Shown: positions 1,931 to 63,074 of the stretch, piece by piece
Layout of the letters: each line of letters starts with the position of its first letter
How positions within the stretch are numbered: position 1 is the first letter of the stretch
Assembly: GCA_902615625.1 (NCBI GenBank)
Contig: CACMPM010000002.1
Coordinates: 28,472 to 92,471, forward strand
DNA from: an uncultured Alphaproteobacteria bacterium
GTDB taxonomy: Bacteria; Pseudomonadota; Alphaproteobacteria; HIMB59; GCA-002718135
Length of the DNA stretch: 64,000 bases
Reading direction: 5' to 3'
Position numbers and translations under genes: made by a program
Notes under the pieces: model-generated
What the model was told of the DNA's origin: nothing
Databases searched by the model: none
What the model saw: the letters and a program-made list of their open reading frames with translations, nothing else

Positions 1931-2721
1931 TTATGATTAAAGAAAAATAATTGTTTTCCATTTACTCGATAATTATTAATCAATTGTTTTGCTTCTTCTG
2001 ATGTAATCCAATCAATATATTTTTTAGCTTCTTCAATATTTAAATTGTTATTTATCTTATTGCTTACTAAAATTATTCCATATTGATTAAATAATGGCGG
2101 TAAATTTTCACAGACAATTTGTAGATTTTCTTTTTTATTAAAAGCTATCCAAGTGCTACGATCACTAAGAGTGTAAGCATTTTTTTGATTAGCTATTAAT
2201 AATGTTGATCCCATTCCCTGACCAACACTGAGATACCAATTTTCTTCAAATGGTACTCTTATATTTGATAATTCCCAAAGTTCCCTTTCTTTTTTATGCG
2301 TACCACTCTCATCACCTCTAGATACAAATAACAATTTTGATTTTTTAATTTCAATCATTTTGTTTTCAATTGAAGAGCATGTTTTTTTATCTTTTTTCGG
2401 TCCTATCAAGACAAAATCATTATACATCAAATCATGTCTAAGAATGCCATACCCATTATTCATAAATTCTAGTTCTGATTTTTTATGGTGAACTAATAAA
2501 ATTTCAACATTGCCATCCATTGCAACTTTAATTGCCTGCCCTGTTCCAAGAGATAATGCCCTAACTTTTGTCTGATATTTATTTTCAAATTTTTTGTTAA
2601 TATATTCTAATAAGCCCGTATCGTGAGTAGAAGTAGTGCTAGCTATGGTTATATATTTATTATTTGCAAGAGCACTCTTTATAAAGAATATTAAACTAAA
2701 TATTAATAAAACTCTAATCAT
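1927..2721 (-). CDS. tupA: Tungstate ABC transporter substrate-binding protein
   Basis: Signal peptide; ASTTSTHDTGLL, GTGQA, SRGDESGTH, GQGMG, AYTLSDR motifs. Confidence 0.85.
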   Translation of the reverse strand: MIRVLLIFSLIFFIKSALANNKYITIASTTSTHDTGLLEYINKKFENKYQTKVRALSLGTGQAIKVAMDGNVEILLVHHKKSELEFMNNGYGILRHDLMYNDFVLIGPKKDKKTCSSIENKMIEIKKSKLLFVSRGDESGTHKKERELWELSNIRVPFEENWYLSVGQGMGSTLLIANQKNAYTLSDRSTWIAFNKKENLQIVCENLPPLFNQYGIILVSNKINNNLNIEEAKKYIDWITSEEAKQLINNYRVNGKQLFFFNHN

Positions 2722-3303: not shown

Positions 3304-4163
3304 TATTTACTCACATTTGTTCTTGTAGCTATATAGACACCAAATGTACAAATTAATAGTCCAATAATATCAATTATAAATAATTTTTCCTCTAAAACAA
3401 ACCAAGCCATTACAGCAGTAGTTGGAGGAACAAGGAAAAAAAGACTGCTAGTTTTAGAAGCTGTTCCATTTTTTATTAGATACATTAGTATTGCGTACGC
3501 TCCAAAAGACACCATAATGATTTGCCACGATATTGATAAAATAAAACGTGTATCAAAATTAATAAATGATATTTCAAAAAAAAGTGAAATTATAAATAAA
3601 AATATTCCAGCACTTAATGCTTGATAAAAATTATTAACTGAAAGACTGATTTCATGAGTAAATTTTTTTTGCCAAATAGTAGCTGATGTTGCTCCTAGAA
3701 GCGCAACAATAGATGCAATAACACCAATTGTCGGGATTTCAGTTCCAATTTCATAACCTATAACTAATATAGTGCCTAAAAAACCAAAAAATATTCCTAT
3801 CCATTGCGTAAAAGTAACTTTTTCTTTTAAGATAGGTCCACTTAGAATATTTGTTAAAATAGGTTGGAGGCATACAATTAACGCAGATAATGTTGCAGTA
3901 AGTCCCATAGAATAAGAAAAAAATACTCCACCTAAATAAAATCCATGAAAAAGAATTCCAGTAATCATAGCTTGAAAGATTAAATTTCGATTTATTCTTA
4001 TTCTTTCTCTAAAAATAAAAGAAAAAATTAAAAAAAATGCACTTACAATACAAAACCTAAAACATAGTGCTGCAAAAGGGCTTGCTGATTGCACAATAAA
4101 TTGACCACTTATAAAAGCACTACTCCAAAAAAAGATAAATAGATATGAAAGATATAGGTTCAT
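3303..4163 (-). CDS. DMT/EamA family transporter
   Basis: About 10 TM segments; WSSAF, LQPILT, LKEKV, LFFLVPP motifs. Confidence 0.88.
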   Translation of the reverse strand: MNLYLSYLFIFFWSSAFISGQFIVQSASPFAALCFRFCIVSAFFLIFSFIFRERIRINRNLIFQAMITGILFHGFYLGGVFFSYSMGLTATLSALIVCLQPILTNILSGPILKEKVTFTQWIGIFFGFLGTILVIGYEIGTEIPTIGVIASIVALLGATSATIWQKKFTHEISLSVNNFYQALSAGIFLFIISLFFEISFINFDTRFILSISWQIIMVSFGAYAILMYLIKNGTASKTSSLFFLVPPTTAVMAWFVLEEKLFIIDIIGLLICTFGVYIATRTNVSK

Positions 4164-6808: not shown

Positions 6809-7713
6809 TTAAAAACTATCGATGTAGCTTTAAAAATTAAACTATGTCTTTTGGCTAACTCTAATTTATCATTTGAATAACCACCACCTATTACTGTCGC
6901 AATAGGAATTGATTTATTTTTAAAAAATTCTAGTACTGTAAGATCTCTTTTTAATAATCCTTCAGTTGTTATTTTTAAATTTCCTAATTTATCATTTTTA
7001 TGAATATCAACCCCTGTATCAAAAATTACTAATTCAGGATTAAAATTTTTTAAACAACTATTAAGTGATTGATTTAATATTTCTAAATACTCATCATCTT
7101 CTAAATTATCATCTAATTCAACATCCATATCACTTATTGATTTTCTAAAGGGAAAGTTATTTTTACAATGAATAGAACATGTAAATATTTTATCATTACT
7201 CTTAAGGATTGAAGCGGTACCATCACCTTGATGCACATCAGTGTCAAAAATTAATATTTTTTTTACTTGATGGGTTCTTATTAAATGTAATGAAGCATAA
7301 GCCAAATCGTTAAAAACACAGTATCCCGAACCAAAATCCCTATGACTATGGTGTGTGCCACCTGCTAAATGATTTGCTATACCATTTTTAATTGCTTCTT
7401 TGCATGTTAATAGAGTTCCATTAACTGCTAAAAAGGAACGATTAGAAAGTGTTTCTGACCATTTAAAACCCAATCTTCTTATTTCTTTATCGGATAAAGT
7501 ACCATTTTTAATTTTTAATACATAATCTAAATCATGACATATAGAAACTTCATCAACACTTGCTTTTTGAGGACTTAGAATTTTAGCACGATGATAAAAA
7601 TCTGAAGTTTTTAATTCATTATATAAATCTGAAAACTTACTGGCAGTAAATTTATGATTTTCAGGCAGAGGAATGTCATAATCTTCGTGTGTTACCCAAC
7701 TGATTTTTTTCAT
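6805..7713 (-). CDS. Histone deacetylase family Zn-dependent deacylase
   Basis: GGTHH, GYCVFND, DTDVHQGDGT, GGGY motifs. Confidence 0.92.
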   Translation of the reverse strand: MKKISWVTHEDYDIPLPENHKFTASKFSDLYNELKTSDFYHRAKILSPQKASVDEVSICHDLDYVLKIKNGTLSDKEIRRLGFKWSETLSNRSFLAVNGTLLTCKEAIKNGIANHLAGGTHHSHRDFGSGYCVFNDLAYASLHLIRTHQVKKILIFDTDVHQGDGTASILKSNDKIFTCSIHCKNNFPFRKSISDMDVELDDNLEDDEYLEILNQSLNSCLKNFNPELVIFDTGVDIHKNDKLGNLKITTEGLLKRDLTVLEFFKNKSIPIATVIGGGYSNDKLELAKRHSLIFKATSIVFN

Positions 7714-14419: not shown

Positions 14420-17032
14420 TTAAATTATAAATTTTGATATTTCATCTCTTATTAACTTACTTAACAGACTGTAACCAAGTACATTCATGTGTAAAGGATC
14501 TTCTGAATAAAATTTTTCAAATCCAGCATCCAGCATAGGAGAGCAAAGGTCAATATAGCGCCATTGACTAAAATTCTCAATTTTGTTTTTAATCCGTTCA
14601 TTTGCATCTAAAATTGTATTTAAATAATTATTTCTGAATACACTTGGTTTAATCGATATAAAAAAACATAATGTATGAGGTAATTTTTCATTAACCTCAG
14701 AAGCAAATAATAAAAATTCATTTTCTAAATCTTCAGCACTCATTCCACTCCCTATATCATTATCCCCAGCATAAAAAATCATCTTATCAGGGTTATTTGG
14801 TACTACTATTCTGTTAAAATATGTACGGCATGATACTAACGTGGAACCTCCAAATCCTAAATTTAATAAACTATCAAATGACAAATCAGTTTTTGCATTT
14901 TCCCAATCTTTAAAAGTTGAACTACCATATAAGACTATTTTGTTATTTTTATATTGATCTGAATATAATTTAATTTCTAATTCTCTCACGTCTGCTTCAA
15001 ATTCTTCTTCGATAGGGCTGACTAAATTTAAATTACTTATTACATCTTCATTATTAATTTTATTTTTTGATGCAGATTTTGCTAATTCAATTGCTTCTTC
15101 AACATATGACCTAAATGTTTTTCTATATTTAGATAGAAATCTTTCCAATTCTTTTTTATTTTTCATATCATTTACAAAATCTTTTATTTTGATTGGTTTT
15201 TTAATAACTGCAGAATAAATAGTATCAGAAATTGAATAATCAAAATTAGCTAATGCAATTGGAACAAGAAAAGGCTCTGGTCTTAATTGATCTGCTAAAA
15301 AAAATGCACCTGGTTTTAATGGACCTGGAGAGTTTGGAGTTAAATTATCTTCAGTTTCAGATGTGCCTTCTGGCGCAATAACTAAAGGTCTATTTTGATC
15401 AAAAATATTTTGAGTTTCGATAAATAATTTACTTTTTCTTTTCTTTTTTTGCTCTTGAGTTTCATTTAAATAGTCTGACTCTGGTGTATGAACGAAAATA
15501 TAATCTAAATTCTCATAATAATTATATCTCCAAAATTCTGTATTTCTAGAGTATCTAGCTATTCTTTGACCTCCATCACCATATTTTGGAAACAAAATTT
15601 TTGCACTAATAAAATGACTATCTATACTAAATTGATGTCCATTAGCTAAACCATTTTCTTCAATACTTGCCAGATGATTATAAAAAAATATGTTTGTAGG
15701 CTCATCAGGTAAATTTTCCATACCTTTAATAACATAAGGTACTTGATCAAACGCTTTTATAAAATCTGAATTTGTTAATTTTTGTAAAGCTTGTTTATTT
15801 ATTGAATCATATGAAGTTGCTACTCTGTTGTAAATTTTATTTAGTTGTTTGAAAAATCTATTTTTTCTTTCTACACCACTTAATGTATCAATCATTAAAC
15901 TAGCTATAGATTTTTCATCATCGTTACCTGTAATTATTAAATCATAAATTGTATCAAATGCTAAAGAATGAGTTAAATGACTTTCTAATAAATGAGGTAT
16001 TGTATAAAGCTTTGAATTACTAGGTATCGTTGCAGAATTATCATCTAATAAATATTGAAAAAACTCTTTTTCATTTTTAGCTGGATAAGTAGTTAAGCCT
16101 GTTGAGCTTTGAATATAACGACCTAATTGCCATAATTGTCTTTTAAAAAATTTGATTGCCAATTCTGAATTTGTTTTAATTAAATTATCAATAAACTCAT
16201 TTGAAAATTTTAAAATTGTTGTATCTCTCGTTGATCTCAATGAATAAGGTGACTCAATATCATGCAAACCTGCAGATAATGATAATGCTACTCCCGGTCT
16301 AGCTATTGATCTTGAGTTATTTTCTATCTGATCATCTTTTAAATTTGTAAAAGAAGCTTCAACTTTACCTTTTAATAAAATATTTATTCCATCTGATTTA
16401 GTGCCTTCTAACGTTATATATTCACCCGCAGAAAATAGTCTAACGTTTGCATAGTTTATTAATTCATCTAAATCGTTATCATTAAGAAATGCTAAAAACG
16501 CAGAATTTTTAATTCTTTTTGTATTTACAATATCTCCACCAGTTTTAACACCATCTGCTAAATTAATATTTTTTTGTTCAATGGGTTTTTCTAAATTGCG
16601 TGATGACCATATTAAATTAATAGATTCAAATAATAAATAAGAATAAAAAAAACTTGCATAATCGGGATCTATCTTTTCTAATTCTTTTAGTTTTTCTATT
16701 TTAAATGAGATATACTCTGAATTACCTTTAATAAATATATCTGACATATATCTACCTGGCGCATTTAAGCCTGAAATGCCAAGAGGTGATCCAGAATTTT
16801 TTAGTGTTGCTAGATTATAAAAAACATTATTATGATATTTTACGAATTCCGCCTCACCTTTCAAAAGAATAAAAATTTGATCTGCAATACCATGCTGTTC
16901 AGCAATTTTTATATCTTCATTATTTTTATGTAATTCAGCACTAGAATTGATTAAATCTTCAGTATTTTTTTTTGGAGATAAAGAAAAACCTTTATCTACT
17001 AGTATTAAAGATATTTTTTCACTTAAATTCAT
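14420..17032 (-). CDS. Fusion: two cNMP-binding-like domains + lysophospholipid acyltransferase + SGNH/GDSL hydrolase
   Basis: Two ILLKG beta-roll repeats; YNHL..., APEGTS, LVPIAL (PlsC-like); YGSST, GFGGS, YAGDND, DPLH (SGNH blocks). Confidence 0.75.
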   Translation of the reverse strand: MNLSEKISLILVDKGFSLSPKKNTEDLINSSAELHKNNEDIKIAEQHGIADQIFILLKGEAEFVKYHNNVFYNLATLKNSGSPLGISGLNAPGRYMSDIFIKGNSEYISFKIEKLKELEKIDPDYASFFYSYLLFESINLIWSSRNLEKPIEQKNINLADGVKTGGDIVNTKRIKNSAFLAFLNDNDLDELINYANVRLFSAGEYITLEGTKSDGINILLKGKVEASFTNLKDDQIENNSRSIARPGVALSLSAGLHDIESPYSLRSTRDTTILKFSNEFIDNLIKTNSELAIKFFKRQLWQLGRYIQSSTGLTTYPAKNEKEFFQYLLDDNSATIPSNSKLYTIPHLLESHLTHSLAFDTIYDLIITGNDDEKSIASLMIDTLSGVERKNRFFKQLNKIYNRVATSYDSINKQALQKLTNSDFIKAFDQVPYVIKGMENLPDEPTNIFFYNHLASIEENGLANGHQFSIDSHFISAKILFPKYGDGGQRIARYSRNTEFWRYNYYENLDYIFVHTPESDYLNETQEQKKKRKSKLFIETQNIFDQNRPLVIAPEGTSETEDNLTPNSPGPLKPGAFFLADQLRPEPFLVPIALANFDYSISDTIYSAVIKKPIKIKDFVNDMKNKKELERFLSKYRKTFRSYVEEAIELAKSASKNKINNEDVISNLNLVSPIEEEFEADVRELEIKLYSDQYKNNKIVLYGSSTFKDWENAKTDLSFDSLLNLGFGGSTLVSCRTYFNRIVVPNNPDKMIFYAGDNDIGSGMSAEDLENEFLLFASEVNEKLPHTLCFFISIKPSVFRNNYLNTILDANERIKNKIENFSQWRYIDLCSPMLDAGFEKFYSEDPLHMNVLGYSLLSKLIRDEISKFII

Positions 17033-25778: not shown

Positions 25779-25832
25779 ATCGTTCATTTTGAATAATTCA
25801 AAACGGAAGTAAACGAAAGTTGAAGGAACGCA
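25779..25832 (+). promoter_or_regulatory. Glutamine riboswitch aptamer 1 (glnA RNA motif)
   Basis: P1 CGTTC/GAACG, P2 TTTTGAA/TTCAAAA, junction CGGAAGTA, P3 AAC-GAAA-GTT, E-loop GAAG, terminal C. Confidence 0.92.
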
Positions 25833-25845
25833 TGCAAGTTATTAA

Positions 25846-25898
25846 ATCGTTCAATCTGTATTTTACAGATCGGAAGTAAGCTAAAGCTGAAGGAACGC
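25846..25898 (+). promoter_or_regulatory. Glutamine riboswitch aptamer 2 (glnA RNA motif)
   Basis: P1 CGTTC/GAACG, P2 ATCTGTA/TACAGAT, CGGAAGTA, P3 AGC-TAAA-GCT, GAAG; stems covary with aptamer 1. Confidence 0.92.
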
Positions 25899-25964
25899 GG
25901 ATCTTATTATTAATTTCCATAGCTAGGCATGAATTATAACGGATAAGAAAGGTTTGTTATAACT

Positions 25965-26027
25965 ATGGTTAAAAAGTTAGATAATAAAAAATTAATCTAT
26001 TCTAATCTCAAGAGGTTTAATGATTGA
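25965..26027 (+). CDS. Putative 20-aa leader uORF (MVKKLDNKKLIYSNLKRFND)
   Basis: GAAAGG upstream; stop overlaps the next start as TGATG; the ATG lies in a predicted stem. Confidence 0.4.
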   Translation: MVKKLDNKKLIYSNLKRFND

Positions 26028-27433
26028 TGTTTAACGAAATGTATCAATCTGAGTCAGTTATAAGAAATCATTATAATAATATTAATGATTGGTTAGATCA
26101 AATGACTTCAAAAGTAATTCTTGAAAAGAATGCTGAAGCTGAAACTCATTTTAGAAATATTGGAATTACATTTTCTACAAATAATGAAACATCAAGAGAA
26201 AGAATTATTCCGTTTGATTTAATTCCAAGGATATTTACTTATACTGAATGGTTAAGGTTAGAAAGAGGGGTAATCCAAAGAGCTAAAGCACTAAATGCTT
26301 TTCTAGCTGATATTTATAATCAAGGTGAAATAATAAAAGCCAATATAATTCCTAAAGAAATTATTTACAAAAAAAAATCTTTTGAACCTTCTATGTTTGG
26401 TTTTTCTCCTCCTAGAGATATTTATAGCCCTATAATTGGTATTGATTTAGTTAGAACAGGTCCAAATGATTATTTTGTTTTAGAAGATAATTGTCGAACA
26501 CCAAGTGGTGTTTCCTACATGCTAGAAAATAGAGAAATAATGATGCGAATGTTTCCTGATTTATTTCATAACAATAGAGTAACACCTATAGATGACTACC
26601 CAACAAGACTTTTGCAAACATTGATGAGTTTAGCTCCTATTAAATGTGAAAATCCTGAACCAGTTTGCGTGTTACTTACACCTGGTCCTTTAAATAGCGC
26701 TTATTACGAACACAGTTTTTTATCAGATCAAATGGGTATTGAAATGGTTGAATCAACAGATTTATTTGTTGAAGGAAAATATCTTTATATGAAAACAGTT
26801 GATGGTCCAAAAAGAGTAGATGTTGTTTATAGAAGAATAGATGACGATTTTTTAGATCCTTTATGTTTTAATCCTCAGTCTGTAATTGGTATTCCAGGAA
26901 TTATGGATGTTTATAGAACAGGTGGCGTCAATATCTGTTCAGCACCTGGAGTAGGTATAGCTGATGACAAAGCAATTTATATTTATGTGCCTGAGATGAT
27001 CAAATTTTATTTAGGTGAACAACCAATCTTAGATAATGTTGAAACATGGAATTGTGAAAAGGAACAAGAATTAAAATATGTTTTAGATAATATAAATAAA
27101 CTTGTCGTAAAAGAAGTTGATGGATCTGGAGGTTATGGAATGTTAATAGGTCCAAAATCTTCTAAATCCACTATAGATGAATTTAAAACAAAACTCTCAA
27201 CAAATCCAAAAGGATATATAGCTCAACCTTTACTTGATCTTTCATTTTCACCAACACTCATCAAAAATCAAGTTGAGGGAAGAAGAGTAGATTTACGACC
27301 ATTTTGTTTAATTGGAGAGCAGGCTCAATTAAGTTCTGGCGGTTTAACTAGAGTTGCGATGAATGAAGGTTCTTTTGTTGTTAATTCTAGCCAAGGAGGC
27401 GGTGTGAAAGACACATGGGTATTAGCTGAATGA
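26027..27433 (+). CDS. Circularly permuted type 2 ATP-grasp protein
   Basis: IPFDLIPR, VLEDNCRTPSGVSYMLENR, LTPGPLNSAYYEH, YRRIDDDFLDP, GGLTRVA, VVNSSQGGGVKDTWVL. Confidence 0.95.
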   Translation: MFNEMYQSESVIRNHYNNINDWLDQMTSKVILEKNAEAETHFRNIGITFSTNNETSRERIIPFDLIPRIFTYTEWLRLERGVIQRAKALNAFLADIYNQGEIIKANIIPKEIIYKKKSFEPSMFGFSPPRDIYSPIIGIDLVRTGPNDYFVLEDNCRTPSGVSYMLENREIMMRMFPDLFHNNRVTPIDDYPTRLLQTLMSLAPIKCENPEPVCVLLTPGPLNSAYYEHSFLSDQMGIEMVESTDLFVEGKYLYMKTVDGPKRVDVVYRRIDDDFLDPLCFNPQSVIGIPGIMDVYRTGGVNICSAPGVGIADDKAIYIYVPEMIKFYLGEQPILDNVETWNCEKEQELKYVLDNINKLVVKEVDGSGGYGMLIGPKSSKSTIDEFKTKLSTNPKGYIAQPLLDLSFSPTLIKNQVEGRRVDLRPFCLIGEQAQLSSGGLTRVAMNEGSFVVNSSQGGGVKDTWVLAE

Positions 27434-57278: not shown

Positions 57279-57586
57279 TGAAACCTGGAGAAATAATAAC
57301 AAAGCAAAATAGTGATATTAATTTGAACGATGAAAGACAATCAATAACTTTAAAAGTTTCAAATAGTGGAGATCGACCAATTCAAGTTGGTAGTCATTAT
57401 CATTTTGCCGAAACAAATGAATATTTAAAATTTGATAGAGAAAAATCAAATGGTATGCGTTTAGATATACCATCTGGCACAGCTGTTCGGTTTGAACCTG
57501 GTCAATCAAAAGATGTAGAATTAATTCAAATTAGAGGAAATAGAAAGATATTTGGTTTTAATAAAAAAGTTATGGGTAAATTATAA
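57278..57586 (+). CDS. ureB: Urease beta subunit
   Basis: [28 protein letters not shown]. Confidence 0.98.
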
Positions 57587-59292
57587 TGAAAAAAATAAAA
57601 AGAGAAGCTTATGCCGATATGTATGGGCCAACAACTGGTGATAAAGTTAGACTTGCTGATACTGAATTATTTATTGAAGTGGAAAAAGATTTAACAACTT
57701 ATGGAGAAGAGGTAAAATTTGGTGGAGGAAAAGTTATTAGAGATGGAATGGGACAATCTCAAGTATCTCGCAAATACGGTGCTGTTGATACAGTTATAAC
57801 AAATGCCTTAATAGTAGATGTAAATGGAATTTATAAAGCTGATATTGGTCTTAAGGATGGCTTAATTAATGAAATTGGTAAGGCTGGTAATCCAGATACA
57901 CAACCTAATGTAAATATTATTATTGGACCTGGAACAGAAATAATTGCTGGTGAAGGCAAAATTATAACAGCTGGTGGTTTTGATAGTCATATTCATTTTA
58001 TTTGTCCTCAACAAATAGATGATGCACTTCATTCTGGTATTACAACTATGTTGGGAGGAGGAACTGGTCCTGCACATGGTACTTTAGCTACTACAGTTAC
58101 ACCTGGACCATGGCATATAGAGAAAATGATACAATCAGCAGATGCTTTTTCCATGAACTTAGCTTTTGCAGGAAAAGGAAATAGTTCTTTACCTAAAGCT
58201 CTTGAAGAACAAGTAATTGCCGGTGCATCTTCATTAAAACTACATGAAGATTGGGGTACAACTCCCGCAGCAATAGATAATTGTTTAAATGTAGCTGATG
58301 ACCATGATATCCAAGTTATGATTCACACAGATACATTAAATGAAAGTGGTTTTGTGGAAAGCACAATTAAAGCAATTAATGGAAGAACAATTCATGCTTT
58401 TCATACTGAAGGAGCTGGTGGTGGTCATGCACCTGATATTATAAAAGTTTGTGGTGAACAATATGTTATTCCTTCTTCTACTAACCCAACAAGACCTTAC
58501 ACGGTAAATACAGTTGAAGAACATTTAGATATGTTAATGGTTTGTCATCACTTGGATAAATCAATACCTGAAGATGTTGCTTTTGCTGAAAGTCGTATTC
58601 GAAAAGAAACAATTGCAGCAGAAGATATACTGCATGACATGGGTGCTTTTTCAATTATTGCTTCTGATAGTCAAGCTATGGGTCGTGTTGGTGAGGTTAT
58701 TATTAGAACATGGCAAACAGCACATAAAATGAAAGTTCAACGTGGACAATTAAAAGAAGAGCAGGGTGATAACGACAATGTAAGAGTTAAAAGATACATT
58801 GCTAAATATACAATTAATCCTGCAATTGCCCATGGTATTTCCGAACATATTGGAAGTGTTGAAAAAAATAAACGTGCTGATATTGTTATTTGGGATACTG
58901 CCTTTTTTGGCGTTAAACCTGAAATGGTTTTACAAGGTGGAAGTATTGCTTGCGCACAAATGGGTGATCCTAATGCATCTATACCAACACCACAACCAGT
59001 GTACTCAAGACCAATGTTTTCTTCCTTTGGAAAATCATTAGAAAAATCTACTGTCACTTTTGTAAGTAAAGTTTGTTTAGATAAATCTTCATTTAAAAAC
59101 TCTGGTGTAAGTAAATCTTTGTTACCCGTTAAAAATATTAGAAAAATTTCTAAAAAAGACATGATATTAAATGATTATTGTCCAAAAATAGAAGTTAATC
59201 CAGAAACCTATGAAGTTTTAGCAGATGGTGAGTTAATTACTTGCGAGCCAGCCAAAACATTACCGTTGGCTCAACGTTATTTCATGTATTAA
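57586..59292 (+). CDS. ureC: Urease alpha subunit
   Basis: [44 protein letters not shown]. Confidence 0.99.
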
Positions 59293-59741: not shown

Positions 59742-60377
59742 ATGAAAACATTTAAAGATCCTCATCAAATATTACAAGTATGGTTTTCATCCTCTTTTCC
59801 TATTGGTTCTTATGCATACTCTCATGGTTTAGAAGCACTGATAGATGATAAAAAAATTAAAAATAAAGATGATGTGAAAGAATTTTTAGATGCTCTTTTA
59901 TTTTATGGCACAATAAGAAATGATTATATTTTTATAAAGTCTGTTTACAAAGGTGAGGAAATTAATGAATTAATCTTAGCAAGTGCTTCTTCGAAAGAAA
60001 GGCAAATAGAAATGATAGATATGGGAAATTCTTTTTGTAAAATTATGAAAGATAGTTGGGAATTATCTCTACCCGAAAATTCATCGTTTATATATTGTTT
60101 GGCGAAAGCTGGATTATATTTTGATATTAAGTTTGATGATTTAATTACGTTTTACTTACAGTCATTTATTTCTAATTTAATAAATGTATGTGTAAAACAT
60201 ATACCAATGTCACAAAAAGATGGACAAGGTCTTAATGTTAATTTTATTAATAAAATTCAAGATTTTTTGACTCATGCAGAGAAACTGACTCTTAGAGATG
60301 TAGGTTCAACTTTTTTTATTGGTGATATTTTTGCCATTAAGCACGAAAATCTAGACTCAAGGATCTATCTAACGTGA
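59742..60377 (+). CDS. ureF: Urease accessory protein UreF
   Basis: [27 protein letters not shown]; ATG at 59742. Confidence 0.93.
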
Positions 60378-60985
60378 ATAATATAAATGGACCTTTAAAA
60401 GTTGGTATTGGTGGTGGAATAGGGACTGGCAAAACGAGTTTAACAGAATCATTATGTCGTCATTTATCTAAAAAAGTTTCTATGGCTGTTATTTCAAATG
60501 ATATTTATACAACTGAAGATGCTGAATATTTAATGAAAGCTCAAGTTCTACCTATAGAGAGAATAAAAGGTGTTGAAACTGGAGGTTGTCCACATACTGC
60601 TATTAGAGAAGATTGTAGCATTAATTTACTTGCAGTGGATGAGATGAAAAAGAAATTTCCAGATCTTGAATTAATACTTATTGAATCAGGTGGTGACAAT
60701 TTAGCAGCAACTTTTAGTCCAGAGTTAGTTGATTTAACAATTTATATGATTGATGTGGCTCAAGGCGCAGACATACCAAGAAAAAAAGCACCTGCTATTA
60801 GGAAGTCTGATTTACTCGTCATTAATAAAATTGATCTTGCTCCATATGTAAATGTTGATTTAGAGCGAATGAAAGAAGATGTGAATGAAGCCAGAAATGG
60901 TTTACCGTATATTTTTGGTGAAATGAAAAATAATAACGGAATTGAAAAAATTTCTGACTTCCTAATATCTCAAGGTGGGCTATAA
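60374..60985 (+). CDS. ureG: Urease accessory GTPase UreG
   Basis: P-loop [29 protein letters not shown]. Confidence 0.95.
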
Positions 60986-61243
60986 CTATTCTACTTTTTG
61001 CAAAGAATACACCGTATCTGTACTATTAAACTTTGAATCAAATTCTTTTGATTTTGGATCATCAAATAAAGCATAAAATTTTTCTTCATCGGTAACATTA
61101 CACATAATCATCACGTGGCCATCTTTCACAAAAGCCATATCAAATGCATCAGTATATTTTGCAATATCATCTTTGAAAAAATTATATAATTCCATGTAAT
61201 CTTCCTTGGTAAAAGATCCTTTGGATACAACACATAAATTCAT
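60986..61243 (-). CDS. Hypothetical acidic protein, 85 aa, downstream of a SAM-II riboswitch
   Basis: AGGAG RBS at 61250-61254; beta-alpha-beta-beta-alpha-beta pattern. Confidence 0.8.
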   Translation of the reverse strand: MNLCVVSKGSFTKEDYMELYNFFKDDIAKYTDAFDMAFVKDGHVMIMCNVTDEEKFYALFDDPKSKEFDSKFNSTDTVYSLQKVE

Positions 61244-61254
61244 AATTATCTCCT

Positions 61255-61293
61255 AAAAAAAATATCCTCACCATTTTTCTTAATGGGAGGATA
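61255..61293 (-). terminator. Intrinsic terminator in the leader (riboswitch expression platform)
   Basis: Minus strand UAUCCUCCCAUU...AAUGG(U)GAGGAUA, 12 bp with a 1-nt bulge, then U8, directly before the RBS. Confidence 0.75.
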
Positions 61294-61306
61294 AATTTAT
61301 ACGTAT

Positions 61307-61350
61307 CTCATTTTAGCTGCTTGTAAACCGCAATAGAGTCAAATCGTTTA
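61307..61350 (-). promoter_or_regulatory. SAM-II riboswitch aptamer
   Basis: Minus strand UAAAC-GAUUUGA-CUC-UAUUGC-G-GUUUA-CAA-GCAGCUAAAAU-GAG: P1 UAAAC/GUUUA, pseudoknot UUGC/GCAG and CUC/GAG, conserved GAUUU and GCUAAA. Confidence 0.82.
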
Positions 61351-61409
61351 TTATTATTAAATAATATTTAATTATTAAAATTCAATTAGAATTAGAGAAT
61401 TAATAGTTA

Positions 61410-61814
61410 CTACTCATATTTATCAGAATACAAATACGGTATCCCAATAACTAAAATAATATAGAAAACCATAAAGCCTGCAATAAGAGGTAATACTTCT
61501 CCAGCTGGTACTGTACTAAAAGGACCGATGACAAATCCATAAATCACAAAAAGAATATTTAAACCTACTAAATAATATCCACCACTTCTTTTCATACTGT
61601 ACAACATATAAATTGTGTAAGCGATTGCTAATTGAAAAACTATACTCACAATAAAATCTAAAGTAGAAAGTTGAACATTAAAATCTCCTACAGGTGGTTG
61701 CACACCTTGTCCGGAAAAATATCCATACGTAATTCGATAAGACGTATCAATAAAATCAAGAGAGATAAGGATTAACATAATCCAATGGAGAGGTTTAAAT
61801 AATCTTTCTTTCAT
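61410..61814 (-). CDS. Hypothetical membrane protein
   Basis: 4 TM segments. Confidence 0.7.
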   Translation of the reverse strand: MKERLFKPLHWIMLILISLDFIDTSYRITYGYFSGQGVQPPVGDFNVQLSTLDFIVSIVFQLAIAYTIYMLYSMKRSGGYYLVGLNILFVIYGFVIGPFSTVPAGEVLPLIAGFMVFYIILVIGIPYLYSDKYE

Positions 61815-62390: not shown

Positions 62391-63074
62391 TTATTTTTGA
62401 TGATTTACAACATCAACAAGGATGGCAATTACCAAATTCAATATTGTAATTGAGCAAATTGAAATAAAGCTAAAGAAGTAAATCCAAGCCCACCAATAGA
62501 TAGCCTGCATAGGGAGCATTACATTTTCCCAACTTGATAATGTTAATACTTGGAATAATGTAATAAGTGAAATACCAAGATCAGCCCATCTATTAGGATC
62601 ATCTTCGCCAAATAAAATTGATCCCATTGTTGCGTAAATATAAAGAATTATAAACAAAAGTAGGCTAACAAAAAAAACTCTTTTTATAGATGTAAGAATA
62701 GCTTCAATAATTTTTTTTAATTCTGGTATTACAGATATTAATCGTAAAACTCTAAAAATTCGTAAAAGACGTAAAACTAAAAAACTTGAATTATTTGGAA
62801 TAGGTATAAGAGAAATAGCTACAATTATTGTATCAAATACATTCCAACCATCTTTGAAGAAGTTTTTCTTTTCCTTTTCTCCTATAAAACGAATTAGTAT
62901 TTCAATAACAAAAAAAATTGTAATGGCATAATCTAGTAAGTGGATAGTATTTAAAAAAATTGGATCTAATTGATATGTCGTTGCACCAATAAGTATTGCA
63001 TTAAGAATAATTATAATGACAACTGAAAATTGAAAAATTCGATTATCTTTTAATTTTGAAAAAAAATTAATCAT
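62391..63074 (-). CDS. Voltage-gated cation channel, BacNav-like
   Basis: FFKDGWNVFD, S4 RLLRIFRVLRL, pore TLFQVLTLSSWE, S6 LNLVIAI. Confidence 0.9.
   Translation of the reverse strand: MINFFSKLKDNRIFQFSVVIIIILNAILIGATTYQLDPIFLNTIHLLDYAITIFFVIEILIRFIGEKEKKNFFKDGWNVFDTIIVAISLIPIPNNSSFLVLRLLRIFRVLRLISVIPELKKIIEAILTSIKRVFFVSLLLFIILYIYATMGSILFGEDDPNRWADLGISLITLFQVLTLSSWENVMLPMQAIYWWAWIYFFSFISICSITILNLVIAILVDVVNHQK

Follow-up and report, generated by a model that had tools for sequence, protein, structure and literature searches.

A probable compact SAM-II-type riboswitch with an intrinsic terminator ahead of a small, urease-linked ABM-like protein gene in SAR11

Introduction

What controls a small, uncharacterised gene that faces the urease genes of a marine bacterium, and what might its leader tell about its role? 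The gene in question encodes 85 amino acids (aa) and lies on the minus strand, at 61243-60986, of a 64,000-nucleotide (nt) stretch of DNA from an uncultured alphaproteobacterium (GenBank assembly GCA_902615625.1, contig CACMPM010000002.1), the whole of which we call the window. The host genome analysed here is a 1.31-Mb SAR11 (Pelagibacterales) assembly of single-cell or metagenome origin that is 88% complete. SAR11 bacteria are among the most abundant in the ocean. They cannot reduce sulfate, and much of their sulfur and methionine economy stands under riboswitches for S-adenosylmethionine (SAM) (PMC5069961). A riboswitch in front of an uncharacterised gene is one of the few direct clues to what that gene does. 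An initial annotation of the window, made from the letters alone, had proposed a SAM-II riboswitch plus terminator in the leader of the 85-aa gene. Having followed up this proposal computationally, we consider, with a probability of roughly 0.7, that the 5' leader acts as a compact riboswitch of SAM-II type, which turns the gene off with SAM by way of the terminator.

Results

Anatomy of the leader

Every element that the initial annotation had named is present on the minus strand, namely a SAM-II-like pseudoknot aptamer, a 12-base-pair (bp) hairpin with a run of eight uridines (U8), a ribosome-binding site (RBS) and a small acidic open reading frame (ORF). The candidate aptamer, an H-type pseudoknot assigned to the compact SAM-II type by a model score (R2, below), covariation and an invariant core, spans 61349-61307 (minus strand, as for all parts of the leader). 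Its helix P1 joins AAAC (61349-61346) to GUUU (61328-61325), and loop L1, the third strand, consists of the 12 nt GAUUUGACUCUA (61345-61334). Helix P2b pairs UUGC (61333-61330) with GC(U)AA (61317-61313), leaving U61315 bulged, and a single G separates its 5' strand from the 3' strand of P1. The 7-nt loop L3 (ACAAGCA, 61324-61318) follows, and helix P2a is formed by CUC (61338-61336) and GAG (61309-61307), the latter preceded by AAU. A conserved 13-nt linker, AUACGUAUAAAUU (61306-61294), leads to the intrinsic terminator at 61293-61263, a 12-bp stem with one bulged U (61270) and the loop AAGAAA (-14.9 kcal/mol), and the U8 tract (61262-61255) stands directly 3' of the hairpin. The distance from aptamer to hairpin, initially put at 13 nt, is better given as 10-13 nt, according to where the end of the aptamer is set. 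The Shine-Dalgarno (SD) sequence AGGAG (61254-61250) abuts U8 and lies 6 nt before the AUG of the ORF, which encodes an acidic alpha+beta protein.

Upstream of the aptamer there is a promoter-like block with the putative hexamers TTGAAT (61385-61380) and TATTTA (61363-61358) and a 16-nt spacer. Within the linker (61294-61306), the letters AUACGUAU form a perfect palindrome, for which we found no structural role. A simple terminator scanner reported no terminator at 61293-61255, because the stem contains a bulge.

Likeness to SAM-II and SAM-V aptamers

Three sequence blocks are common to the candidate, the SAM-II matches of SAR11 relatives and the SAM-V consensus, namely (C/U)GAUUUGA, which lies in L1, followed by AUUGC(N)G and (C)AGCUAAA(A). 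The candidate's GAUUUGA, AUUGCGG and CAGCUAAAA align with 19 SAM-II matches from relatives, and also with the Rfam SAM-V consensus and with the SAM-II element ahead of metX in its own genome. The core (GAUUUGA, 61345-61339; AUUGC, 61334-61330; GCUAAAA, 61317-61311) is invariant in 42 of 42 distinct leaders. In the crystal structure of SAM-V, U:A.U triples, the bulged U47 and A50 hold SAM (PMC6061858), and by analogy the core positions of the candidate would correspond to these ligand contacts.

Elements of compact build were collected by scanning metagenomes with the pattern GATTTG, 5 free bases, ATTGC, 8-15 free bases, GCTAAAA, which is found in at least 117 stretches. Among the matches listed, 66 distinct stretches have flanks compatible with P1, and nearly all of these read (U)GCC-GAUUUG(A/U)UCCUA-UUGC-G-GGC-(6-9 nt)-GCUAAAA-N-GGA. 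A SAM-V aptamer lies ~25 nt downstream of such compact elements, as confirmed by Rfam in all three loci tested. The corresponding tandem of P. ubique has a SAM-binding SAM-II domain with a terminator linked to it (PMC5069961, PMC11508383).

From 63 of the compact elements among the matches listed, we built a model (R2) that excluded the candidate's own family; L100, L101 and L138 were left out by judgement, and L167 and L169, as relatives of the candidate, were held out. R2 aligned the candidate from end to end with 37.1 bits and, in the window, an E-value of 7e-8 that is partly circular, the training set having been retrieved with a pattern derived from the candidate. In the whole genome, the candidate was the sole match at E <= 0.001 (E 1.4e-6). 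To control for circularity, we scored the 46 pattern-matching loci outside the training set among the matches listed. Five of them look like real riboswitches (L131, 38.3 bits; L167, 34.7; L169, 32.5; L100, 26.0; L089, 22.5), and the remaining ~40, mostly intragenic, reach at most 20.8 bits. Set against this maximum, the 37.1 bits of the candidate leave ~16 bits of likeness to compact SAM-II beyond the retrieval pattern itself. Canonical elements with a long L3 score at most 10.8 bits with R2. A second R2 match in the window (7399-7439) runs antisense within a coding gene and was set aside as a chance match.

Further observations concern the tandem-type and the canonical elements. Many tandem-type loci (L096, L113, L142 and at least ~60 more are of this type) carry the self-complementary GGAAUUCC directly after GCUAAAAU, which could compete with P2a, and most tandem-type linkers are without a poly-U tract. 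Besides, canonical SAM-II elements that sequester the SD sequence (GCUAAAGGAGA) occur in the window's genus at L072, L075 and L076 and at L077, L084 and L085, where they precede two uncharacterised ORFs starting MVISLKNLKVAKKDHPIYGG and MFNFKYYLANSVKD, respectively. Judging by these elements, the two ORFs are further putative members of the SAM regulon of the genus.

Covariation and constraint

The family alignment holds 43 leaders, 42 of them distinct, and the proposed structure 24 pairs, counting aptamer and terminator together. These are paired in 98.4% of cases; all 12 aptamer pairs can form, and the 12 stem pairs of the terminator are standard pairs in 97.4% of cells. The outer pair of P1 varies within the family (GC in 24 leaders, AU in 10, GU in seven, another combination in one, and A-C in none). 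It follows the classical path over G-C, G-U and A-U, and reflects few events.

Across subtypes, we aligned 18 related rows of our own selection, five of which take another P1 register. Here, where tandem-type elements have GC/CG at the P1 pairs 6-30 and 7-29 and U-A and C-G at the P2a pairs 16-51 and 17-50, the candidate has AU at the former and C-G and U-A at the latter. This alignment had a covariation score of 0.330, compared to 0.162 +/- 0.022 in shuffles (none of 500 reached 0.330) and at most 0.123 for slid partners. The held-out relative L167, on a 1.1-kb contig, has the L3 of the candidate (ACAAGCA) along with a fully compensated, G/C-rich P1 (CUCC/GGAG) and the P2a CUCG/CGAG. Compensated changes of the terminator stem are found in L016 and L169. 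The latter, a 15.4-kb metagenome contig, keeps aptamer and linker, followed by a different, compensated hairpin and another ORF, which starts VSKIQRKDWISILSK.

Over 48 sequences, the aptamer had a nucleotide diversity of 0.040, the linker of 0.048 and the terminator of 0.043, as compared to 0.041, 0.026 and 0.221 at codon positions 1, 2 and 3 of the ORF; diversity was intermediate in the promoter-like block (0.22) and ~0.33 further upstream. The entire leader is thus constrained like amino-acid-changing sites.

The leader and its transcripts

Of 48 loci in which the ORF start is present, 47 have the ~100-nt leader, nearly invariant, ahead of the ORF. The exception, L048, belongs to another SAR11 family and encodes a homologue of 70% protein identity without the leader. 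L048 also carries a divergent neighbour at 2114-2389 (minus strand), whose 91-aa product weakly matches DUF3764 (E 0.0089), and a further small ORF of 95 aa nearby (3648-3935); by its gene content, the region may be a cluster of small proteins of the 85-aa kind.

What lies upstream of the leader varies, being either a co-directional membrane protein gene (in the window a 134-aa one at 61410-61814, minus strand) or a 94-105-aa gene on the opposite strand. The hairpin is unchanged in L001, L022 and L036, whose upstream neighbours are encoded on the opposite strand. The promoter-like block (TTGAAW...TATTAT/TATTTA) is retained at loci with differing DNA further upstream.

Contigs of four marine RNA libraries, in which carry-over of DNA is possible, were aligned to the region. 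A 455-nt contig spans 60908-61338 and thereby joins the ORF and the hairpin to a part of the aptamer; the letters at its 61338 end are presumably Illumina adapter. A second contig ends at 61351, 7 nt after the -10 box, in adapter-like letters that we take to be a template-switch oligo, which hints, and no more, that an RNA begins 2 nt ahead of P1. A third contig extends to 61388, upstream of this putative start. Contig depth and gaps are uninformative on the level of termination.

Expression platform

In the SAM-II OFF switches that Corbino et al. described, the promoter lies a few nt ahead of P1, and the terminator separates P2 from the ORF (PMC1273637). In the candidate leader, the terminator and the promoter-like block, along with the contig that ends at 61351, fit this placement, the downstream gene being one without known methionine or SAM function. 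In keeping with the initial annotation, the aptamer opens the transcript of the small gene itself, and the intrinsic terminator lies between aptamer and RBS.

On this layout, transcription would start ~2 nt before P1, from a promoter of the 85-aa gene's own. When SAM is plentiful, it would be held in a triple helix of the U-rich L1 and P2b (UUGC with GC-U-AA), and its occupancy would lock the short P2a (CUC with GAG); RNA polymerase would then meet the terminator (12 bp and U8) before the RBS, and the gene would be off. When SAM is low, more read-through would occur and the small ABM-like protein would be made. That SAM is the ligand, that the gene is off with SAM and that occupancy of the aptamer alters termination are what we infer.

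Other candidate structures of the leader were rejected. Pairing of the tail with the terminator 5' arm, and of L1 with the 3' arm or the SD sequence, proved unstable by energy evaluation or in constrained folds. The 'anti-aptamer' helix ACGAUUU/AGAU-CGU of the minimum-free-energy fold is broken by single uncompensated changes in L020, L030 and L035, and a mini-ORF in the tail (AUG-AGA-UAC-GUA-UAA) loses its AUG in L039, L041 and L044.

The 85-aa protein

The protein matched no family in Pfam (E <= 0.1) or NCBIfam; among the Pfam models, ABM (PF03992), Dabb, EthD and DUF3764 (PF12594) gave no match at E <= 0.1. Distant relatives have sub-threshold matches to EthD (0.095) and rhaM (0.0067), and the nearest named cluster in the Atlas was DUF3764 (0.92, 143 shared features), which is a lead only. 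A word-indexed search returned 84 homologous sequence clusters, all from marine metagenomes or single cells, the largest with 408 member sequences, and an exhaustive profile search returned 53 representative clusters. Relatives of ~85 aa with ~30-40% identity (by eye) share the signature MN(L/I)C(I/V)VS...DME...EWD..NN..D.VY.LE. No phage relatives were found in IMG/VR or INPHARED.

AlphaFold2 predicted a beta-alpha-beta-beta-alpha-beta order with high confidence (pLDDT 95.4, pTM 0.81). Most of the top 20 VIA matches were of the ABM type (Z 8.1-9.0, a range that the tool calls middling), the best having Z 8.9-9.0 and a root-mean-square deviation of 2.2-2.4 A over 82-84 residues; Foldseek returned E-values from 6e-5 to 1e-3 and TM scores of 0.5-0.65, with 3e8o, 3kg0 and 1y0h on top. 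Of the fold initially guessed, the ferredoxin-like part agrees with these predictions (pLDDT 95.4, ABM at Z ~9), whereas its DUF3764 part has no Pfam match at E <= 0.1. The 85-aa protein is thus predicted to have an ABM-like alpha+beta fold, a likeness at the level of the fold, which by itself gives no function. Judging by its leader, the gene is a likely member of the SAM-controlled set, and our best guess for the protein is a small cofactor-independent enzyme or a ligand-binding protein needed at SAM or methionine shortage.

Distribution and genomic neighbourhood

Of the 116 genomes of the family, 42 carry the exact aptamer, each in a single copy, and all of these belong to the window's genus: besides the window's own genome, 41 of 104 genomes of the genus have it, compared to none of 11 genomes from seven other genera. 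Among the 37 genomes of the genus with a completeness of 80% or more, R2 found exactly one copy in 20. In the window, the 85-aa gene is convergent with the urease accessory gene ureG (60374-60985, plus strand; cobW/UreG family match), and the cassette of riboswitch and ORF is always convergent with ureG. The latter was found in 65 of the 116 family genomes. Comparing the two lists by eye, we found that all 42 genomes with the aptamer bear ureG, a few hundred bases away, and that none of the 51 genomes without ureG has the aptamer; by this distribution, the cassette either belongs to the urease cluster or is closely linked to it. A direct repeat of a tRNA end around the urease island was not found within the window.

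Elsewhere in the window, Rfam reported a '5_ureB_sRNA' at 57735-58024 (minus strand, 110.7 bits), antisense to the gene of the urease alpha subunit (57586-59292, plus strand), which probably reflects conserved urease coding sequence rather than a small RNA (sRNA). Tandem glutamine riboswitch aptamers (RF01739) at 25779-25834 and 25846-25901 (plus strand; 66.0 and 65.7 bits) lie ~120 nt upstream of a 469-aa ORF (26024-27433), and a 227-aa Ion_trans channel (PF00520, E 3.9e-43) is encoded at 62391-63074 (minus strand).

Discussion

The assignment of the leader to a SAM-responsive terminator switch has to stand against a number of observations that, together with the circularity of the R2 E-value, weigh against it. 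Rfam cmscan at the gathering score found no SAM family in the whole window, and a whole-genome Rfam scan gave no SAM-family match. The initial annotation had called for cmsearch with the Rfam SAM-II and SAM-V models, and this came out negative as well: within 351 nt surrounding the site, RF00521 (SAM_alpha), RF01726 (SAM-II long-loop) and RF01826 (SAM_V) had no match even at E <= 10, and RF01826 nothing above its cut-off over 31 relatives. The controls show that such searches have no power here. The canonical SAM-II element before metX (homoserine O-acetyltransferase) in the same genome (contig C15, ~16950-17000, plus strand) obtained only 10.6 bits with RF00521 (E 9.2); the same model reached E <= 0.01 in 20 of 80 SAR11 genomes and exceeded its cut-off in only two of the 80; and compact SAM-II elements adjoining Rfam-confirmed SAM-V (57.8-84.2 bits) had no RF00521 match at E <= 1 in three of three loci. 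Because both the metX element and the compact controls fail as well, the negative result on the candidate says little. Rather, in this SAR11 genus the curated Rfam model overlooks SAM-II elements of both the canonical and the compact form, and since it misses both, SAM regulons are under-annotated in these genomes.

R1, a model built from 19 canonical SAR11 SAM-II elements, gives 35.4 bits to the metX control and 16.0-23.7 bits to SAM-V-like elements. The candidate obtained 17.9 bits (E 0.057), equal to a spurious match, and in the alignment its P1 is unpaired, with the 3' strand deleted. From UUGC to GCUAAA there are 12 nt in the candidate, compared to 16-19 nt in the 19 canonical elements. 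This shorter spacing accounts for the low score, and the two together (12 nt; 17.9 against 35.4 bits) are the reason why we file the candidate under the compact form and not under classical SAM-II with a long L3. Besides, a relaxed SAM-II regular expression with a P1 requirement hits two sites in the 1.31-Mb genome, the candidate and the metX element, and a mean of 1.2 sites in ten Markov-simulated genomes, so that the bare motif is at about chance level. Nothing known connects the regulated gene with methionine or SAM. Within the family, 23 of the 24 pairs never change on both sides (18 are invariant and five have isolated unpaired cells), which, held against the structure, is neutral.

The mechanism, too, has a weak point. 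The antiterminator that the initial annotation had considered plausible, AUGAGAUA with UAUCCUCCCAU (GAGAUA/UAUCCUC), comes to 0 to +2.8 kcal/mol versus -14.9 for the terminator and is absent from nascent-RNA folds, the terminator 5' arm having a pairing probability of at most 0.2; no better competitor was found by energy evaluation and constrained folds. GAG(AUA) can pair with L1, as P2a, or weakly with the CUC of the terminator arm, in L167 as in the candidate, and the antiterminator idea would hence not be absurd, if unsupported by energy. In S. meliloti, the SAM-II element of metA is followed by a terminator, and no SAM-driven antiterminator could be predicted for it; terminated SAM-II leaders accumulate there as sRNAs (PMC9373788). 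As a SAM-II-plus-terminator arrangement without a predictable antiterminator therefore has a precedent, we keep SAM-dependent termination as the most likely mechanism.

How do other explanations fare? The hairpin might simply be the terminator of the upstream gene 61410-61814, the small gene having a promoter of its own, a possibility that the initial annotation had named as what would refute it. In the window, that gene is indeed co-directional and has no other obvious terminator. Yet U8 runs straight into AGGAG, and because no promoter fits between terminator and RBS, the hairpin cannot merely serve the upstream gene; the hairpin is the same where the neighbours lie on the opposite strand (L001, L022, L036), the promoter-like block stands upstream of the aptamer in all loci, and the RNA-library contig from within the aptamer (61338) runs through the hairpin into the ORF. 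We regard this explanation as excluded for practical purposes. The likeness to SAM-II could also be vestigial or fortuitous, in a conserved 5' untranslated attenuator that senses a protein, another metabolite, temperature or nothing at all. The negative Rfam searches, the 17.9 bits of R1 and the ~1.2 chance sites per genome would fit such an origin, as would the weak P1, the lack of a methionine gene downstream and the invariance of the whole leader instead of the aptamer alone, and the linker palindrome AUACGUAU could be a protein site. We nonetheless find it improbable: R2 separates the candidate (37.1 bits) from the pattern-matched controls (<= 20.8), compensatory changes fall exactly where the SAM-II fold has its helices P1 and P2a, all positions that by analogy contact the ligand are kept in 42 of 42 distinct leaders, and the same genus uses SAM-II widely.

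Another possibility is an aptamer that does bind SAM, next to a hairpin that is a constitutive attenuator. Regulation would then take another route, such as translation affected at a distance, Rho, or mRNA stability conferred by structure at the 5' end, and the terminated leader may also serve as an sRNA with a role of its own. Aptamer and terminator are predicted to fold as independent modules with no competing structure, the terminated leaders of S. meliloti provide a SAM-II precedent for sRNAs (PMC9373788), and the linker is conserved without a structural explanation. In the predicted folds, however, the RBS is not paired with any segment of the aptamer, and terminator-bearing SAM-II elements are generally read as transcriptional OFF switches (PMC1273637, PMC6061858). 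We therefore consider such an arrangement unlikely, and SAM-dependent termination remains the reading that we prefer.

Judging from the 84 sequence clusters, the small protein behind the cassette is abundant, and it is probably produced at times of SAM scarcity. What is new here is a stand-alone compact aptamer with a terminator before an uncharacterised ABM-like gene, plus the linkage of this cassette to urease; our literature searches found no paper that mentions the 85-aa gene or the cassette. We tentatively entertain, with a good deal of doubt, that the protein is a new, SAM-starvation-induced player in organosulfur or methyl metabolism or, alternatively, that the compact aptamer with its weak P1 has shifted in ligand affinity or specificity relative to classical SAM-II. 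With a role in SAM starvation, the protein might be an ABM-type enzyme that needs no cofactor and has a sulfur or methyl compound as its substrate, or else a small binding protein responsive to methionine or SAM. The gene would then be delivered with the urease island and would couple the scavenging of urea nitrogen to the sulfur and methyl status of the cell. Either way, the strict linkage to the urease cluster is as yet an unexplained association.

Comparison with known systems

At the level of the protein, the closest known structures are those of the ABM or dimeric alpha+beta-barrel type (4hl9, YgiN 1tuv, SnoaB 3kg0 and the marine 2od4), which have the ferredoxin-like fold and the size (~85-100 residues) in common with the 85-aa protein; sequence identity is 5-16% and no catalytic residues were identified, the likeness being one of fold.

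As regards the RNA, SAM-V (RF01826) has the same core as the candidate (AUUUGA, AUUG..C, GC..CUAAA) and likewise a short P1 (PMC6061858), whereas the longer P2, the P3 hairpin in L3 and the sequestration of the SD sequence for translational control belong to SAM-V only. Classical SAM-II (RF00521, before metA and metX) shares with the candidate the H-type pseudoknot, the conserved U-rich L1 and the 3' strand GCUAAA, as well as the terminator between P2 and the ORF and, in the candidate putatively, the promoter just before P1 (PMC1273637). The metX element of the same genome has the same junctions as the candidate, CACC-GAUUUG and UUGC-G-GGUG. Unlike classical SAM-II, the candidate has an L3 that is 5-6 nt shorter and regulates a gene other than a methionine or SAM gene.

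Nearest of all are the compact, tandem-type SAM-II elements of marine metagenomes, which would correspond to the tandem of Pelagibacter. L1 is likewise 12 nt long and of the same kind (GAUUUGAUCCUA in the tandem, GAUUUGACUCUA in the candidate), P2b is the same (UUGC with GC-U-AA), and a single G precedes the 3' strand of P1. In both, P1 is short (3-4 bp), UUGC and GCUAAAA are 9-13 nt apart (12 in the candidate), and a 3-bp P2a lies one nucleotide past GCUAAAA. The SAM-II of the tandem is, moreover, reported to act on transcription termination (PMC5069961). The two differ in their helices, P1 being A/U-rich in the candidate (AAAC/GUUU) and GCC/GGC in the tandem, and P2a CUC/GAG and UCC/GGA, respectively. 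They also differ in context: the candidate stands alone with its terminator, without SAM-V, and precedes the 85-aa gene, whereas the tandem type is paired with SAM-V and precedes bhmT and genes of the metY type. By the features tested computationally, the candidate belongs to the SAM-II kind, in the compact form that it shares with the tandem.

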